Source of the DNA: a virus
Lineage: Duplodnaviria > Heunggongvirae > Uroviricota > Caudoviricetes
Virus record (IMG/VR): IMGVR_UViG_2529292882_000018
Span: 1-34,246 of that record
Length of the DNA: 34,246 nucleotides
Strand: one strand, 5' to 3'
Below are positions 8,720 through 17,602 of this stretch, one piece after another. Under the pieces are notes generated by a model that was not told where the DNA came from, did not search any database, and worked only from the letters and a program-made list of their open reading frames with translations. Made by a program: the position numbers and the translations under genes. Each line of letters opens with the position of its first letter. The first letter of the stretch is position 1.

Positions 8720-10231
8720 ATGTTTAATCTTTTTCGACGCAAAAAGGCGGTAGAAACTCCAGTTAAAACTAATCACCGCCAGCAACAACCAAAAATTTTC
8801 ATCGACAAACAAGTAGAAAAATTCCAGAAAGATTTGTCTAAGCGTTCTTTGGGCTTAGTTGGTGATCGCATTGATGGATCGCTTCAACAAGATACCATTA
8901 CAGGAACCTTCAATAAGGCTCTCAAATCGAACGGTAAGCGCCTTTATGATCAGGGTCGTACTCTGGCTATAAACAATGCTGTAGGTAAGCGATACAAGCA
9001 GTATATCGTTGACCAAGTTGTTGGCACGGGGCTTGATCCGAAGCCATCAATCGTTAAATCAAATGGCAAACTTGACACCGCACTGAATAAGCAAATCGAG
9101 AATGCTTTCTGGAAGTGGGCGCAGAGTGCTAAACGCTTCTCTCGCAACGGTCGCTTTAACTTCCGTGAAATGCTGGCAATGGCAGAATCTGAACGTGTTC
9201 AGGGTGGAGAATGTTTCATCGTTTTAACCAAAGAAAACAACGAGTTACAAGTTTCTATTCTGTCTGCTGATAGGTGTGACTGGTCGCTTAGTCGTGAAAT
9301 AAGCAAAGACCGCGCGATCTATCAAGGGATTGAGTATGACGTAGAAACAATGCGCCCTGTAGCATACTGGTTTAGAAAAATCAATCTACTGACTCAGACC
9401 TACACTGGCGAAAATTATCGCGTAGATGCTTCTCAGGTGTGCCACTACTACCAGCCACTGTGCGCGGAAAGTTTACGTGGCGTGACTGACTTCCTGCCAG
9501 TGATTAAGGATATCGCACATCAAGACGCATTCCGCGAAGCTGTACTGGTCATGAAACGAATTTCAGCTTGTAACATGGCGTTCATCGAGCGTCCGAAAGA
9601 TTCTGGTGACGATTTTGATACTGGTGAAGATGATGAACAGTATCAAGCGCCAGAAGTTATTCACGATTTCGCGCCAGGTACTATTCAGGAATTACCGGAA
9701 GGGGCAACGATTAAATCAATCCAATCTACTCAATCAGGCGATGATTTTAACAGCTTCAATGATGCGATGTTTACTAGCGTATCAATGGGATTGGGCGTGT
9801 TCAAACAGGGCTTGACTGGTGATACTTCCCAGATCAACTACTCAGCCGCACGTTTCGGTGAATTAACCCAGCGCACACGAGTTAAAGCACTGCAAAACAA
9901 ATTAATTGAAACAGTGGTATTGCCAATTTTCGAAGCATATCTACGCCATTATTCCGCGCGTGGTATTGTTCCGATTCGTATTACTGCAATTCCGCATATT
10001 ATCGATAATACAACTATTATCCGTCCGCGTTTTGAATCCGTCGATCCATTTAAAGACGTAAGCGCCGAGATTGCTTTAATTGATAACGGACTTAAATCAC
10101 GTACTGCCGTTATATTAGAACGTGGTGATGATCCTGAAAAAGTATTCTCAGAGATTCAAGCCGAAAAGAGCGCACTAAATATTATCGTTGATGGTGAGGG
10201 TGAAGAAAAAAATTCCCCAGCCGATCCCTAA
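8720..10231 (+). CDS. portal protein (by position and size)
   Basis: 503-aa ORF directly between large terminase and prohead protease/capsid; strong RBS. Confidence 0.75.
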   Translation: MFNLFRRKKAVETPVKTNHRQQQPKIFIDKQVEKFQKDLSKRSLGLVGDRIDGSLQQDTITGTFNKALKSNGKRLYDQGRTLAINNAVGKRYKQYIVDQVVGTGLDPKPSIVKSNGKLDTALNKQIENAFWKWAQSAKRFSRNGRFNFREMLAMAESERVQGGECFIVLTKENNELQVSILSADRCDWSLSREISKDRAIYQGIEYDVETMRPVAYWFRKINLLTQTYTGENYRVDASQVCHYYQPLCAESLRGVTDFLPVIKDIAHQDAFREAVLVMKRISACNMAFIERPKDSGDDFDTGEDDEQYQAPEVIHDFAPGTIQELPEGATIKSIQSTQSGDDFNSFNDAMFTSVSMGLGVFKQGLTGDTSQINYSAARFGELTQRTRVKALQNKLIETVVLPIFEAYLRHYSARGIVPIRITAIPHIIDNTTIIRPRFESVDPFKDVSAEIALIDNGLKSRTAVILERGDDPEKVFSEIQAEKSALNIIVDGEGEEKNSPADP

Positions 10232-10276
10232 TAACCAACGGGGGCGCAATGCCCCCAATTAATTAAAGGTGATTAA

Positions 10277-12277
10277 ATGCTTAAATTTCGCCGCGATCTT
10301 AACGGTTACGGTGGAGTTATTAACGAAGGGCATAACGATCAATACGAGTTTGAAATTGCTTTCTCCAGTGAACAGCCTTATCAGCGCCAATTCTGGGATG
10401 AGCAAAATCAAGAAATGGTGGTATTAGATGAAATTCTGGTACATACACCGGAAGCGGTTGATCTGTCTCGTCTGAATAATAACGCTCCGTTGCTGTTCAA
10501 TCATAATTTCGATAATCACATTGGTGTTGTTTGTAACGCTCGAATCGATGCGGATAACGTAGGTCGTGCTCTGGTTAAATTCTCTAAGCATGGGACTATG
10601 GCTAACGATATTCGTAATAAAGTCATTGAAGGTACGATGGAAAAAATTTCTGTCGGCTATGACATTAAAGAATATCACATCGATTATGCCAAAGGGCAAT
10701 TGATTGTTACTAAGTGGGCACCCTATGAACTCTCATTTGTCACCGTTCCTGCTGACGATACGGTTGGTTTAAATCGCTCTCTAAATACTATCACAGTTAA
10801 TTTGGAGGCTAAACGCGATATGACTAAAGAACAAATCGAAGAAATCAAAGAAGAACAAGAAGCCGCTCAGGTTGAAGAAACTCCGGTAGAAGAAAATAAA
10901 GAATCGGAAGTTGAAGAAACTCAAGAGCGCCAAGTTGAAGAGAATAAAGAAGATGAAAATCTCGAAGACGGAAAAGACGCTGAACATCCTGAAAGTGTTG
11001 ATGATGATAGTTCAACTGTTCGGGAAACAGAAGAAGTAAAAGAAGAACGTGAAGCCGCTCCGGTTGAAGAAGAAAAAACCGAAGAAGTGGCTGAACGTTC
11101 CGAAGAAGACGAAGAAGAAATTCGCGAAATTGCACGCGAACTAAATATTGATGACTCTGAATTAGCACGCGCATTGGCAATTAAAGACATGACGCCGGAA
11201 GCATTCCGCACTAAGGCACTAAATAATCTCGTCAATGCTCAACGTAATAACGAACAAATTAAGGACTCTAAAATGGAAAAAACTTTTGACCTGAACAACG
11301 TAATTCGCTCTCTGGTAGATGGTGCTGCTCTGGGTGCTAACGAAGCTGAATATTCCGCTATGGCTGCTGGTGCTGCAATGCAGCGTGGTCGTGCTGCTCG
11401 CGGTGGCTCTGTATTCGTTCCGGCTGCTGCTATGCGTGCTGCTTCTGCTGGTAACACCAAAGCCGACCTGACCGCTATCACTGACGAAAAACTGATGACT
11501 GAATCCTACATCGAAATGCTGATGCCGGAATCTGTTCTGGGTCGTCTGGGTGTGACTGTTTACAGTGGCTTGAACTCACCGACCGCTATTCCAAAAATGA
11601 CTAAATCCAGCGTTGACGCTTTCGGCTTCGTTGATGAAAACGGTGCTGCACCGGAAAGCAAAGCTGAATTTGCAAACGTGAAACTGTCTCCTAAGACTTT
11701 TGCTGGTGGCAACCCGATCAGCCGTCAGTCGCTGAAAACCGTTCCGGGCATCGCTACCCTGATCACTGATCACATTAACAAAGCTGTTCGCATCAAACTG
11801 GAACAACTGATTCTGTCTGATAAAGCTAACGACCGTGGTCCGGCTGGTCTGGTTAAGCAACTGGTAGACGCTAGCCGCGTTACCAAGAAAGCTGCTTTCT
11901 CTTATAAAGACTTCCTGAAAGAAATTGCAGCACTGACCGACGCTGGCGTTCCTGCTCAGGCGATCAAGTTTGCAATGAGCGGTGCAACTGCTGCTGAACT
12001 GGAATCTACCCTGAAAGATAACGGCGTTTCCGGTTATATCATCGAAAACGGCAAACTGGCTGGTTACGAAGTAGTTACTTCTGGCGTTATCCCGGCAGAC
12101 CACATCGTTCTGGGTGACTTCTCCGGTATTACTATCGGTGAGTGGGGAGGTCTGGAACTCGACATGGATCTAACTACATATAGGGATCGTGGTGCGGTAG
12201 TGCCTCGTATCTTTGTAGATTTGGACTACGTTGTAGCACAGCCGGAAGCTCTGAAAGTTCTTCACATCTCCGAATGA
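10277..12277 (+). CDS. prohead protease - acidic scaffold-like linker - major capsid protein fusion
   Basis: 666 aa; N-terminus has ELSFVTVPADD motif typical of HK97-type prohead proteases; middle is Glu-rich with repeated EAA(Q/P)VEE units; C-terminal ~330 aa is capsid-like with highly biased codons. Confidence 0.75.
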   Translation: MLKFRRDLNGYGGVINEGHNDQYEFEIAFSSEQPYQRQFWDEQNQEMVVLDEILVHTPEAVDLSRLNNNAPLLFNHNFDNHIGVVCNARIDADNVGRALVKFSKHGTMANDIRNKVIEGTMEKISVGYDIKEYHIDYAKGQLIVTKWAPYELSFVTVPADDTVGLNRSLNTITVNLEAKRDMTKEQIEEIKEEQEAAQVEETPVEENKESEVEETQERQVEENKEDENLEDGKDAEHPESVDDDSSTVRETEEVKEEREAAPVEEEKTEEVAERSEEDEEEIREIARELNIDDSELARALAIKDMTPEAFRTKALNNLVNAQRNNEQIKDSKMEKTFDLNNVIRSLVDGAALGANEAEYSAMAAGAAMQRGRAARGGSVFVPAAAMRAASAGNTKADLTAITDEKLMTESYIEMLMPESVLGRLGVTVYSGLNSPTAIPKMTKSSVDAFGFVDENGAAPESKAEFANVKLSPKTFAGGNPISRQSLKTVPGIATLITDHINKAVRIKLEQLILSDKANDRGPAGLVKQLVDASRVTKKAAFSYKDFLKEIAALTDAGVPAQAIKFAMSGATAAELESTLKDNGVSGYIIENGKLAGYEVVTSGVIPADHIVLGDFSGITIGEWGGLELDMDLTTYRDRGAVVPRIFVDLDYVVAQPEALKVLHISE

Positions 12278-12420
12278 ACTAGCGTAGAACCTTCTGAACC
12301 TTCCCCCGATTTGGGGGAAGAAAATCTGATTCCATCTCAGGAAGAAGAATCCCAGACGGTTACGGCGAAAGCCACAGCTAAAAAGGTGGGACGTCCACCG
12401 AAAGCAAAATAATAATAATT

Positions 12421-12448
12421 AGCCCTGCCTAACGGTGGGGCTTTTTTG
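12421..12448 (+). terminator. intrinsic terminator after capsid region
   Basis: AGCCCTGCC-TAAC-GGTGGGGCT hairpin followed by TTTTTT. Confidence 0.7.
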
Positions 12449-12477
12449 TATGTAAATACTCCATAAAGGGGGTAACT

Positions 12478-12768
12478 ATGTTCAAATTATCAGAATCACA
12501 ATTATCAAGAATGTTCCGAAGTGCTCCTGTATTTTCGGTGGAAGGTGGTAAATCAATTCGTGCTTATCATGAAATTACTACTACCGACGAACAAGGGGTA
12601 ATGACAGAGACAGAATTTCTATTTTGTCGTGAGGGAGACTTAAAGCAAGGTGATATTGTCATTGTAGAAAATCAGCGTTTCAAAGTTCAATACGTTAAGC
12701 GCAATGGTGACAATACCGCAGATTGCTTTATCACTCTGGCAGGGGGTACACATGCTCGCTACCGTTAA
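12478..12768 (+). CDS. hypothetical head-tail connector candidate
   Basis: 96-aa ORF with AAGGGGGTAA RBS immediately after capsid gene. Confidence 0.55.
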   Translation: MFKLSESQLSRMFRSAPVFSVEGGKSIRAYHEITTTDEQGVMTETEFLFCREGDLKQGDIVIVENQRFKVQYVKRNGDNTADCFITLAGGTHARYR

Positions 12769-14092: not shown

Positions 14093-17000
14093 ATGCAATC
14101 AATCCAATTTAAACGAACTAATGTTTCTGGCAAAAAGCCAACGCCGGAACAATTACAGGTCGGTGAGGTGGCAATCAACCTTAAAGACCATGTTATTTTT
14201 ACCAAAGACCGAGATCATGAAGTAGTTCAAATCTCTGTTTCTCCTGAAACTCACGCGGCACTAGAATCTAAAGTTGATGCTAACAAACAAGAATTGGATA
14301 GCACAATTGCAGTAAATGACCGCAATATTCACGCTAAAGTAGATGAAATTAAACAAACTACTGATTCTACTATCGCAGCAAATCATGCAGAAATTAACAA
14401 TAAAGTTGATGTAATTAAACGCGAAACCGACGCGACAATCGAAGCTAATAAAAATAAAGCTGCTTCCGATCTTGCTGGTGTTAAAGCTGAATTGTCGGAT
14501 ACCATCAACGCTAATAAAAATGCGGCTGCTGTAGCAACTCAGGAACTGGACACCCGCATCAATAAAAAAGTTGATGATATTAAATCCCGTACAGATGCAA
14601 CCATCGCAAGCAATGACAAAGCAATCAATGACAAAGTTGATTTGATTAAGACAGAAACTGACCGCACTATCGCAGCAAATAAAGTCTATGCGGAAAATCA
14701 GTTAACTGACACCTACAATAACCTTACTGGTGTGATTGCAGCTAATAAGCAAGAGGCAGCGGATAACGTTGCGGCATTAACCCGTGATGTTGAAGCCAAA
14801 AATACAGCAATTCATAGCAAAGTTGACAATAACAAGTCTTACACTGATTCTGAACTGGCACGTTTAGAAAGCCGTATTGATGCAGCCGATGGATCTGCTG
14901 ATGGCAAGTACATCAAAAAACACGTAAACACTTATACTGATGGTTATTTGCTGTCTAAGACCGCAAACTATTTTGATGATCCAAATGCGCGTAATCTTGA
15001 TTACTTTGGTGCATTCCGCATGAATGACCTGGCGGGTCATATTGCAATGATCTTGCATGTTCCGCATCCATCTGGTGTTAATCATGCTCGTGGCTTTGAG
15101 TTCACTTATGGGTCTAATCCACATGCTACTGTAAGAACATACGGCTATGATGAATTAGGTAATTTGTCATATTCTCACCGCATGTATCATGAAGGTGATA
15201 AACCTACTCCGGCTGAAATTGGCGCATATTCGAAAGCAGAAATTGACCGGATGTTCCAGAAGACCATCAACTTTGGTGTAGAAACTGGATGGTTTAAAAT
15301 TGCTACCGCCTTTATTCCGCAAAATGACGGACGTAGCTTGAAAATTAGATTGATTGGTGGAAATGGGTGGAACGTAGGACAAACTGGACAATGTAATATT
15401 ATTGAACTTGTTATAAGGACTAGCAACGGTTCGCCTAAAGGAATTAACTTTGTTGCGTATCATCATGTTTCTGGTTACGAAAATCAATTTTGTGCCATTA
15501 ATACAGGTGATGACACTTATGATATCTATGCATATTACTTCGAATTTACTAATATGGTAATGGCTGAATATCAAGCGTCCAGCGATGTTAATTTAACTGT
15601 ACTTGATCGACCTGAATATGTAGGCGATAAACCTGTAGCTGACCATATCTATGATGCATATACAATACACTCCTTTAACAGTTTCAGTAACCGTGGAACG
15701 TTAAATTTTGCTGGAAACCATCAAGGCCAATATGACATTGAGCATATGAACGAACAACCGACAAATGCTAAAAAGATGTTGCGTCGGTTTAGAAGCTCTG
15801 CCCTCGCGACAATCTGGCATGAAACCGTTGATGATAACGCATATCGTCTTGCCACTGGCGGTACAGATTCAGGTCAACAATTATTGCTGACAACAACCGG
15901 GTTACATGTCAAGAGATTAACATTGGATGGCGGTGCTGCGGGTGGAAATGCTGGTATTGATATTCGTCGAGGACCAAACGAAGCAAGCCATTTTAATTTT
16001 ATGGATTATCGCACTGGTCAAGATGTTCGTAATGGCTGGTTTGGTTTTGGTGATTTGACGACCAAAGATTTTATTTGGTGTAACGATAACGGTCAAAACT
16101 CGATAAACTTGATTGAAAACGGTGAATTACATATTACTGGTGGTAAAGGCCAGAAAATTGTAATGAATAGCGAAGTCGCATTGTCTGAAAATGCTCGTTT
16201 GGCTGTTAAAGGTGGTAATTATGGCTTAATTTTTAGAAATGATGGTACTAGTTTCCATATACTGACTACCGATTTAAAAGATTCTTTTGGAAATTGGAAT
16301 AATCGTAGACCATTCAGCTATGATTTCGCCGAAGGTGGATTAGATCTAGGTGGCACAACGACCGAACGCTGTTTACATCTGGGAATTGATGGTAGTACCC
16401 GCATCGAGGAGAACTTAGTTTTCCGATCTGGGTCGCGTCAATCAATGGACTATATTGAAATGATCCATTGGGGTAACAGTAATATCGCTCGTGACAACGT
16501 TTTGAGTATGAAAGACTCAAAAGGATTCCTTGCTGAATTTGAACGAGTGGGTGGGACTAACGGCGTTAAAACCAGATTCTTTGGTGAAACATTCACTGAT
16601 GGTACATTATACCTAAATCAGATGAATAATAGCTCTGAACGATTCTCTATCAACAATTGGGGAAATTCAGAAGTTGGACGCGCGGCAGTAATGGAAATCG
16701 GCGATTCCAAAGGTTATCACTTCTATACGGAACGTAGAACAGATAACAGTTTGATGTTTGATGTTGCTGGCGCTTTTACTGTGCATGGACCTAGCGGGAT
16801 CACTATCAAAAACTCTGATGGTGCTCGTCACATCTGGTTTAGAGATAACAGCGATACAGAAAAGGCTGTTATCTGGGCTACAGATGAGGGTATTTTACAT
16901 ATTCGCAATAACCACGGTGGACAATTTAGTCATCACTTCCAGGGTGCAATGATTAAAGCGGGAGAGCGTGTTCCATATAATAGTGAATACGCTCTTATCC

Positions 17001-17602
17001 GTGGTGATATTTCCGGTGGTGCATGGGTAGACTGGCGAGCGCGTCCGGCTGGATTGTTGGTAGACTGTCAGGACTCACGAAATCAAGCATATAACATTTG
17101 GAAAGCTACTCATTGGGGCGAACAGCACCTTGCGGCGATGGGTGTTCATGCTGGCGGTGGTAATCCTCATGTTGTATTGCATGTGGGTGGGAATGATTAT
17201 GCATTTGCATTTAACGGTGATTTTACTGCTGGTGCTGCTGTATATTGTAACGACGTTTATATTCGTTCTGACCGTCGTCTGAAAATTAATGTTGAAGACT
17301 ACGAAGAGAATGCGGTGGATAAGGTAAATAAACTCAAAGTTAAAACCTATGATAAAGTTAAATCTCTTTCTGACCGCGAAGTTATCGGCCATGAGATTGG
17401 TATTATCGCACAGGATTTGCAAGAAGTATTACCGGAAGCTGTTAGCACTTCTAGTGTCGGATCTCAGGATAACCCAGAAGAAATTTTAACAATTTCAAAC
17501 TCCGCAGTGAACGCGCTTTTAATTAAAGCGGTCCAAGAAATGAGCGAAGAAAATAAAATCCTTCGTGAACGTCTTGCTGCAATTGAGGCTAAATTAGGGT
17601 AA
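14093..17602 (+). CDS. side tail fibre / tailspike-like protein with C-terminal intramolecular chaperone (S74-type) domain
   Basis: 1169 aa; N-terminal tandem ~21-aa KVD..IK..TD.TIAAN repeats; C-terminal SDRRLKINVED...IGIIAQDLQEV... matches the auto-cleaving chaperone domain known from T5 L-shaped fibre and K1F endosialidase. Confidence 0.8.
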   Translation: MQSIQFKRTNVSGKKPTPEQLQVGEVAINLKDHVIFTKDRDHEVVQISVSPETHAALESKVDANKQELDSTIAVNDRNIHAKVDEIKQTTDSTIAANHAEINNKVDVIKRETDATIEANKNKAASDLAGVKAELSDTINANKNAAAVATQELDTRINKKVDDIKSRTDATIASNDKAINDKVDLIKTETDRTIAANKVYAENQLTDTYNNLTGVIAANKQEAADNVAALTRDVEAKNTAIHSKVDNNKSYTDSELARLESRIDAADGSADGKYIKKHVNTYTDGYLLSKTANYFDDPNARNLDYFGAFRMNDLAGHIAMILHVPHPSGVNHARGFEFTYGSNPHATVRTYGYDELGNLSYSHRMYHEGDKPTPAEIGAYSKAEIDRMFQKTINFGVETGWFKIATAFIPQNDGRSLKIRLIGGNGWNVGQTGQCNIIELVIRTSNGSPKGINFVAYHHVSGYENQFCAINTGDDTYDIYAYYFEFTNMVMAEYQASSDVNLTVLDRPEYVGDKPVADHIYDAYTIHSFNSFSNRGTLNFAGNHQGQYDIEHMNEQPTNAKKMLRRFRSSALATIWHETVDDNAYRLATGGTDSGQQLLLTTTGLHVKRLTLDGGAAGGNAGIDIRRGPNEASHFNFMDYRTGQDVRNGWFGFGDLTTKDFIWCNDNGQNSINLIENGELHITGGKGQKIVMNSEVALSENARLAVKGGNYGLIFRNDGTSFHILTTDLKDSFGNWNNRRPFSYDFAEGGLDLGGTTTERCLHLGIDGSTRIEENLVFRSGSRQSMDYIEMIHWGNSNIARDNVLSMKDSKGFLAEFERVGGTNGVKTRFFGETFTDGTLYLNQMNNSSERFSINNWGNSEVGRAAVMEIGDSKGYHFYTERRTDNSLMFDVAGAFTVHGPSGITIKNSDGARHIWFRDNSDTEKAVIWATDEGILHIRNNHGGQFSHHFQGAMIKAGERVPYNSEYALIRGDISGGAWVDWRARPAGLLVDCQDSRNQAYNIWKATHWGEQHLAAMGVHAGGGNPHVVLHVGGNDYAFAFNGDFTAGAAVYCNDVYIRSDRRLKINVEDYEENAVDKVNKLKVKTYDKVKSLSDREVIGHEIGIIAQDLQEVLPEAVSTSSVGSQDNPEEILTISNSAVNALLIKAVQEMSEENKILRERLAAIEAKLG

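Follow-up and report, generated by a model that had tools for sequence, protein, structure and literature searches.

How much protease and how much scaffold enter a procapsid is a classic question of phage assembly, and genes that fuse protease, scaffold and capsid protein into one reading frame bear on it; their apparent 1:1:1 ratio has been noted as odd and left unexplored. Such a gene lies at positions 10277-12277 (+ strand) of the stretch of DNA analyzed here, the window, which comprises all 34,246 nt of the viral record IMGVR_UViG_2529292882_000018 in IMG/VR and is an Escherichia coli temperate prophage. The open reading frame (ORF) is single and uninterrupted, and encodes 666 residues (73.3 kDa). 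The original prediction, made from the letters of the window, described a protease-like N-terminus, a Glu-rich repeat linker and a codon-biased capsid C-terminus, all of which are present where it placed them, and took the fusion to fix the protease:capsid stoichiometry. The latter is probably wrong. The two halves of the gene are under very different codon selection, and in-frame ATG codons preceded by Shine-Dalgarno (SD) motifs, at Met182 and Met333, lie within it, with signals that recur in the family. This suggests, at the level of sequence, that capsid-containing, protease-free products are made separately and in excess. The ORF is probably translated from more than one start, nested as in λ C/Nu3.

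Codon usage and candidate internal starts

In the capsid part of the gene (residues 346-666), the frequency of optimal codons (Fop) is 0.83 and the effective number of codons (ENC) is 33.7. The corresponding values are 0.52 and 48.3 in the protease part, and 0.46-0.55 and 44-56 in the other genes of the window. With amino-acid composition controlled for, the codon z is 0.2 for the protease part and 11.3 for residues 333-666. The preferred codons of the capsid part are GCT (74%), GGT (67%), CGT (67%), CTG (82%) and AAC (100%), and G+C at third codon positions (GC3) is 0.44. These five codons belong to the optimal set of highly expressed E. coli genes (Ikemura; Sharp and Li). Because preferred codons end in T or C and GC3 is only 0.44, the bias indicates translational selection, not a GC-rich donor. 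Amino-acid composition and a GC-rich origin were thus rejected as the cause of the codon step, as the composition-controlled z stays high.

The change point in codon optimality falls at codons 329-332, adjoining TAAGGA-N7-ATG, the ATG being that of Met333. The gene and its three putative translation starts are as follows.

10277-12277, +: fused gene for protease, linker, scaffold-like helical domain and major capsid protein
10267-10273, +: SD-like AGGTGAT of the full-length start; duplex energy -6.9 kcal/mol, local mRNA minimum free energy (MFE) -5.8
10804-10822, +: candidate internal start 1; GGAGG (10804-10808), 11-nt spacer and ATG of Met182 (10820-10822), at the protease/linker junction
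11260-11275, +: candidate internal start 2; TAAGGA (11260-11265), 7-nt spacer and ATG of Met333 (11273-11275)

An in-frame TAA immediately precedes the ATG at 10277. Downstream of the protease domain, an in-frame start codon with a ribosome-binding site, as in λ C/Nu3, is found at both Met182 and Met333, in unstructured mRNA. The product beginning at Met182 is predicted to have 485 residues (52.6 kDa). Its SD duplex energy is -9.3 kcal/mol, within the top 1.4% of ORF positions, and the local MFE is -3.2, the ORF-wide mean being -10.6 +/- 4.6. The product beginning at Met333 is predicted to have 334 residues (35.2 kDa), with an SD duplex energy of -5.8 kcal/mol and a local MFE of -1.5, the lowest structure among in-frame start-codon sites. 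A sigma-70 scan for an internal promoter before the capsid part returned two weak sites against 4.0 expected by chance, none of them near Met182 or Met333.

One product implies equal translation of both halves; therefore, the codon contrast is not explained by fusion alone. A competing explanation is that only the 666-residue chain is made, with protease, scaffold and capsid at 1:1:1, and that the ~415 tethered proteases of a T=7 procapsid cut themselves and their neighbours off and are lost. The uninterrupted ORF with its good 5′ SD agrees with this, and databases and papers handle such genes as single fusion proteins. However, z values of 0.2 and 11.3 within one translation unit are left unexplained, and a 5′ "ramp" of unoptimized codons spans tens of codons, not ~180. 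Together with the evidence from relatives given below, this makes a single product unlikely, although it is the strongest of the competing explanations.

Start signals and codon step across the family

Both candidate sites are found in close relatives. GGAGG precedes Met182 in 28 of 34, the remaining six having GGGGG, and AAGGA-N7-ATG is retained at Met333 in all 34, while the residues encoded between its two elements vary (KDSK, KEQI, KEKN and KESI). Equivalents of the Met333 site are found in the sister lineages DCP80 and L048 only.

The codon step coincides with the junction Met in DCP80 and L048, both at 41-45% identity. For the protease part, the stretch from one internal Met to the other, and the remainder, z is -1.2, 4.9 and 11.1 in DCP80 and -0.1, 4.0 and 8.7 in L048. 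The scaffold part, which is discarded, shares capsid-like codons in these sister lineages, so a single product cannot be defended on the ground that only the retained part is optimized. In ECOO78, the step is at M217; in Arya, a weak step is seen at about codon 220.

Eleven of 12 phage lineages carry an ATG with an SD-like motif just C-terminal of the protease domain. Among 68 non-redundant loci, 64 have an in-frame ATG that lies 6-75 codons past the PAD motif of the protease. The SD energy preceding the first such ATG is in the local top decile in 36% of these, compared with 10% expected (binomial p 2.4e-8).

To score codons independently of the host, we compare usage in the last 200 codons with that in neighbouring genes, as a log-ratio, and evaluate the score outside the part on which it is trained. 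The score is below zero in every bin of the protease and above zero from 20 codons past the junction ATG onwards. Of 41 loci, 37 score higher after the junction ATG than before it (Wilcoxon p 5e-9). Aligning the loci on this ATG gives an abrupt switch, and the score dips immediately before the ATG and in its first 10 codons, which resembles genuine gene starts; aligning them on the protease motif blurs the switch. That the codon switch coincides with an ATG and SD, here and in 37 of the 41 family loci, again argues against a single product.

As a two-gene control, we use HK97, in which Fop is 0.57 for gp4, 0.72 for the delta domain of gp5 and 0.65 for the mature part of gp5; the direction agrees with that in the fusion. 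The same layout lends itself to another explanation, in which the internal SD and ATG and the codon step are leftovers of a two-gene (gp4, gp5) ancestor or of module recombination and have no function now. Phage head genes are mosaic, the nucleotide diversity of this ORF is blocky among relatives, its linker is nearly free of synonymous diversity, and the HK97 genes differ in codon usage in the same direction. Against such a relic, the signals persist, in a constant direction, across lineages at 25-45% identity, whereas unused ribosome-binding sites and codon optimization would be expected to decay. AAGGA-N7-ATG outlasts the amino-acid turnover between its two elements, and a bias toward E. 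coli optimal codons at a GC3 of 0.44 is no compositional import. We regard a functionless relic as improbable, clearly more so than a single product.

Several points weigh against nested translation. Codon usage and SD motifs are proxies for translation level. The linker between the two internal starts (residues 182-332) is barely codon-optimized in the window, with a z of 2.1, or 0.6 when Glu and Lys are left out, which also counts in favour of a single product; Met182 may therefore be weak here, or the linker may have been remodelled recently. The spacer of Met182 is long, at 11 nt, and its SD is GGGGG in six of 34 relatives. Met333 lies inside a long predicted helix, and a product starting there would be without half of the helical domain that the AlphaFold model (AF2) draws across it, which again fits a single product. 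A Met333-type start was rejected as a family-wide feature (top decile in 6 of 32, p 0.09) and is limited to the clade of the window. SD-like purine runs arise by chance in linkers rich in Glu, Lys and Gly, and neighbouring positions are the only control for this. The 41-68 family loci are related to one another, so the p-values overstate their independence. In about 6% of loci the junction stretch lacks an ATG, and in several an ATG is present but no SD precedes it. Finally, in the literature searched we found no report of internal initiation in protease-capsid fusions, nor of a separate polypeptide beginning at the internal Met in infected cells.

A model for nested translation of the fused gene

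In the nested-translation model, the upstream start would yield a minor full-length protease-scaffold-capsid chain, which would co-assemble as a capsid subunit and carry its tethered protease into the procapsid. The internal in-frame starts would yield protease-less capsid precursors in large excess, Met182 being the family-wide start candidate and Met333 a clade-specific candidate at the step in codon bias. After assembly, the protease would trim the chain back to about residue 396, so that a mature shell protein of ~29 kDa remains. The protease:capsid ratio would then be set by the strength of the start sites and not be 1:1, and the "nested" strategy of λ C/Nu3 would be combined with the "scaffold fused to capsid" strategy of HK97.

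A broader version of this model, which we would not quite call probable, extends it to the fusion genes of hundreds of phage lineages. These would be multi-start nested genes, with a minor full-length "Trojan-horse" subunit and a shell built mostly of scaffold-capsid chains from internal starts; in the clade of the window, Met333 and read-through of the UGA stop may be added, giving up to four or more isoforms of the capsid protein from one ORF.

If nested translation is correct, start-site strength tunes the protease dose, and a covalent tether substitutes for a targeting peptide. Thousands of database entries named "major capsid protein" would then conceal two or three products, which bears on annotation, capsid engineering, phage-display design and on how defence systems are interpreted when what they sense is a capsid or protease protein.

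Domain organization of the full-length chain

The full-length chain was modelled with AlphaFold (mean predicted local distance difference test score, pLDDT, 79). Its parts are as follows.

10337-10777, +: prohead serine protease domain of HK97 gp4/S78 type, residues ~21-167; catalytic His76 (10502-10504) and Ser125 (10649-10651)
10820-11176, +: acidic, mostly disordered linker, residues 182-300, 35% Glu; from composition and AF2
11102-11449, +: predicted helical domain, residues 276-391, likely scaffold/delta-domain equivalent; from AF2 and family conservation
11444-11476, +: predicted maturation-cleavage region, residues 390-400, SAGNTKADLTA; from R4C homology and a dip in AF2 confidence
11498-12274, +: HK97-fold major capsid domain, residues 408-666, with E. 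coli-optimized codons; from PF05065, 8GTA and Foldseek

The HK97-type protease proposed for the N-terminus is borne out by profile search. Residues 40-162 match Pfam Peptidase_S78 (PF04586, "Caudovirus prohead serine protease") with E 2.2e-10 and 41.3 bits, above the curated cutoff of 21; the stricter NCBIfam equivalog TIGR01543 gives 35.8 bits and its cutoff of 59 is not reached. Across 40 diverse aligned homologues, H76 and S125 never vary. Their counterparts in HK97 gp4 are the catalytic residues H65 and S114, likewise 49 residues apart. AlphaFold places a confident, beta-rich domain at residues 21-160, and comparison of the predicted fold indicates a herpesvirus-assemblin/T4 gp21-like protease. 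A sequence search of the PDB with the protease profile gave no significant match. On profile matches and predicted fold, the N-terminal domain is an S78 prohead protease.

The linker is as Glu-rich and repetitive as was first described, with EAA(Q/P)VEE repeats. Over residues 181-300 the net charge is -38 and Glu makes up 35%. Two 47-nt copies (10833-10879 and 11025-11071), 85% identical, lie 192 nt (64 codons) apart and are surrounded by shorter VEE-type copies. Disorder is predicted for residues 168-182 and 198-271, with pLDDT below 50 for the latter. Among 33 relatives, synonymous diversity of the linker (~10775-11080, residues 166-268) is 0.00-0.02, with amino-acid differences of 0.03-0.07, compared with a synonymous diversity of 0.02-0.34, mostly 0.05-0.3, in the remainder of the gene; a recent sweep, gene conversion or constraint at the RNA level may be behind this.

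The helical domain is predicted to consist of helices 276-288, 293-301, 307-335, 339-348, 354-369 and 383-391 (pLDDT 77-93). It has no match in Pfam or NCBIfam, and alignments show that its motifs are conserved across the family. Judged by its position, it is likely the equivalent of the scaffold or delta domain. About 60 residues N-terminal of the mature capsid start, most distant homologues carry the motif (I/V)GL(S/T)xxE(V/A)(R/K)x(F/Y)S(F/L)xxA(I/V)R. The clade of the window has a divergent form in this region (residues ~325-350, nt ~11250-11325), MEKTFDLNNVIRSL. A protease site and a scaffold-capsid contact are possible roles of this motif.

The C-terminal part has the capsid fold expected of it. 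Residues 409-663 match Pfam Phage_capsid (PF05065) with E 2.6e-26 and 93.1 bits, against a curated cutoff of 24.2, and by sequence the capsid of R4C (PDB 8GTA) is matched with E 4e-24. Foldseek of the capsid domain finds 8GTA (E 8e-18) and HK97 (1OHG, E 1e-10), and also the RcGTA and D3 capsids. The model is confident over residues 408-666, with a dip in confidence at residues 394-407. Comparison with HK97 gp5 by hhalign has a probability of 93% and aligns the capsid core only, not the delta domain; the K103/S104 cleavage site of HK97 is not mapped here by this alignment.

The homologous fusion gene of roseophage R4C has 629 codons, and the capsid chain of the R4C virion in 8GTA is its last 268 residues, starting at G362, and is thus without the first 361 encoded residues. 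G362 aligns with L398 of the window protein, within the segment of low confidence. Therefore, we infer cleavage near K395/A396, which would give a mature protein of about residues 396-666 (~271 residues, 28.8 kDa). On this homology, it is plausible that all residues preceding the capsid fold are removed by proteolysis. Our literature searches found nothing relevant to how homologues are processed or to internal starts in them; they covered R4C, marine phage proteomics, phiXacJX1, and prohead protease in connection with cyclic oligonucleotide-based antiphage signalling systems (CBASS).

The 3′ end of the gene

Two features follow the capsid domain.

12275-12418, +: UGA stop (followed by A) and an in-frame open extension of 44 codons, TSVEPSEPSPDLGEENLIPSQEEESQTVTAKATAKKVGRPPKAK, ending TAA TAA TAA; candidate read-through tail
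12421-12448, +: intrinsic terminator, 9-bp stem and T6, closing the capsid transcript

The TGA-A stop and an open frame 0 of 28-45 codons are present in 33 of 33 close relatives, in all of which frames 1 and 2 are closed. Length variants of the extension among relatives differ by whole codons, and no start codon inside the 44-codon extension is conserved among the 33 relatives. The tail is thus a candidate for a C-terminal extension made by UGA read-through, by analogy with Qbeta A1 or T7 10B. With UGA read as Trp, the predicted junction peptide would be ...VLHISE-W-TSVEPSEPSPDLGEENLIPSQEEESQ.... Against read-through, substitutions in the extension are mostly non-synonymous (18 columns versus 4), and the pattern is not clearly coding. 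A family-wide read-through extension was rejected: over 68 loci, frame 0 past the stop is no more open than the other frames, and the feature is limited to the clade.

The region 12255-12450 is unusually structured (MFE -67.2 kcal/mol, z = -4.9) and includes a 9-bp hairpin at 12300-12325, CUUCCCCCGAUUUGGGGGAAG, ~25 nt 3′ of the UGA, and the strong intrinsic terminator at 12421-12448. This structured region could stabilize the capsid mRNA or influence read-through.

Occurrence of the fused gene

An artefact, with two genes falsely joined through a lost stop codon or through a frameshift in sequencing or assembly, would at first sight suit an ORF of unusual length. Among 34 close relatives, one (L034) has an ORF shortened to 393 residues, and in one genome, that of strain FXCREC043 (H42, NZ_CP195866.1 2067802-2070563), an IS1A insertion splits the gene. 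The other 33 relatives have an intact ORF of 666-670 codons. The identical protein is found in NCBI on four contigs, annotated "phage major capsid protein [Escherichia coli]", and chromosomal copies of the gene are found in 49 of 5,426 complete E. coli genomes, the gene being intact in 44 complete genomes. An exhaustive homologue search returned 6,868 cluster representatives, 517 of them at E <= 1e-30; the best 150 of those listed are nearly all 560-700 residues long and match both halves. In IMG/VR, at least 568 stretches carry such fusion genes. As the ORF is kept in close relatives and in hundreds of distant homologues, a frameshift or assembly artefact is excluded for practical purposes.

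In FXCREC043, the Prokaryotic Genome Annotation Pipeline (PGAP) calls the halves of the split gene "HK97 family phage prohead protease" and "phage major capsid protein". In strain 14EC007 (L001, NZ_CP024131 2958621-3000605), the prophage adjoins a truncated ycdX and tRNA-Ser. The G+C content of the prophage is ~41%, well below the ~51% of E. coli, and the majority of its genes are annotated "hypothetical protein". Megablast against 50,697 phage records found no near-identical phage genome. The closest homologue in phage databases, at 45% identity, is in "Escherichia phage DCP80" (L035, PQ671644.1), a 141-kb record assigned to Straboviridae/Tevenvirinae that locally carries a λ-like terminase-portal-fusion head module and may be chimeric or misclassified.

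Neighbouring genes

The fused gene is preceded by genes for a large terminase of the λ gpA type, a small gpW-like protein and a portal of the λ family, and is followed by head-tail and tail genes. The order TerL(gpA), gpW-like, λ-type portal and fusion gene is common to all 11 phage homologues compared, whatever the tail type. The portal stop and the SD of the fused gene are separated by one further element.

10239-10257, +: GC-rich hairpin CGGGGGC-GCAAT-GCCCCCA (GGGGGC/GCCCCC stem)

This hairpin is conserved in all 34 close relatives; it is unchanged in 30, and three have one additional G in the 5′ G-run. No U-run follows it 3′ on the + strand. Possible roles are a limit on translational coupling and the marking of a site of RNA processing or stability. 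An Rfam search of 10100-12600 found no known RNA element, the sole match having E 0.88.

Further downstream, an ORF of 1,169 residues (14093-17602) that is tail-fibre-like directly follows a 277-residue major-tail-like ORF. Its N-terminal ~250 residues carry the repeated motif "...KVD.IK..TD.TI.AN...". The next genes after the 1,169-residue ORF in L001 encode a tail tube protein and a Gp38-like receptor-recognition protein, which is an unusual order.

Comparison with known systems

The protease-scaffold-capsid fusion is an architecture already known and widespread, less unusual than the original prediction assumed, and the gene itself is an ordinary, uncharacterized member of this class. It matches PHROG 617 over its full length (E 7e-94) and PHROG 4523, "major head and protease protein" (E 6.5e-42). 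NCBIfam NF045541, "prohead protease/major capsid protein fusion protein", is matched by the N-terminal half only (E 4e-38, 131.4 bits against a cutoff of 525); the architecture is that of NF045541, but the protein is outside this narrow "exception" model. Homologues in GenBank are annotated "major capsid protein and peptidase U35" or "major capsid protein and protease". As far as we found in the literature searched, nested translation of such a gene and its possible read-through tail have not been reported before.

The same three-part ORF is seen in the fusion genes of actinophage clusters EE, AN and EL ("major capsid and protease fusion", "protease-scaffold-capsid fusion") and in those of Rhodobacter RcC/Cronusvirus, R4C, phiHAP-1/VP882, Jilinvirus and Foxunavirus. 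These direct homologues share 25-45% identity and the synteny of the head module with the window. Unlike them, the E. coli prophage lineage is uncharacterized and annotated just "phage major capsid protein".

The gene resembles HK97 gp4 and gp5 in its S78 protease family, in the His/Ser pair with its 49-residue spacing and in the capsid fold. In HK97, too, the scaffold function precedes the capsid domain and is cut away by the protease, and the genes are ordered portal, protease and capsid, the last of them followed by a terminator. By contrast, gp4 and gp5 are separate genes, and the HK97 protease relies on its C-terminal tail for non-covalent targeting. The acidic linker and ~115-residue helical domain (residues 182-395, ~215 residues) stand in place of a 103-residue delta domain, and the portal and terminase are of λ type (gpA/gpB families).

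The tripartite capsid gene of the Salmonella phage Gifsy-2 is the subject of a paper by Effantin et al. (Virology, 2010). It reportedly consists of a protease, a central putative scaffold of ~200 residues and an HK97-fold capsid. Its protease is reported to be ClpP-like, not S78, and a λ gpD-like decoration protein is reportedly present. By this description, Gifsy-2 is similar in that one enterobacterial prophage gene provides protease, scaffold and capsid.

In λ C/Nu3, HSV-1 (herpes simplex virus 1) UL26/UL26.5 and HFTV1 gp17/gp17.5, an internal in-frame start past the protease gives an abundant protease-less assembly protein. For the archaeal virus HFTV1, the nesting has been demonstrated by ribosome profiling (bioRxiv 10.64898/2026.09.13.751334). 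In all three, the full-length chain delivers the protease, and by analogy we propose the same mechanism for the fused gene. The nested product of these viruses is the scaffold alone, the capsid protein being encoded by a separate gene, whereas here it would be scaffold and capsid, or capsid with a short propeptide.

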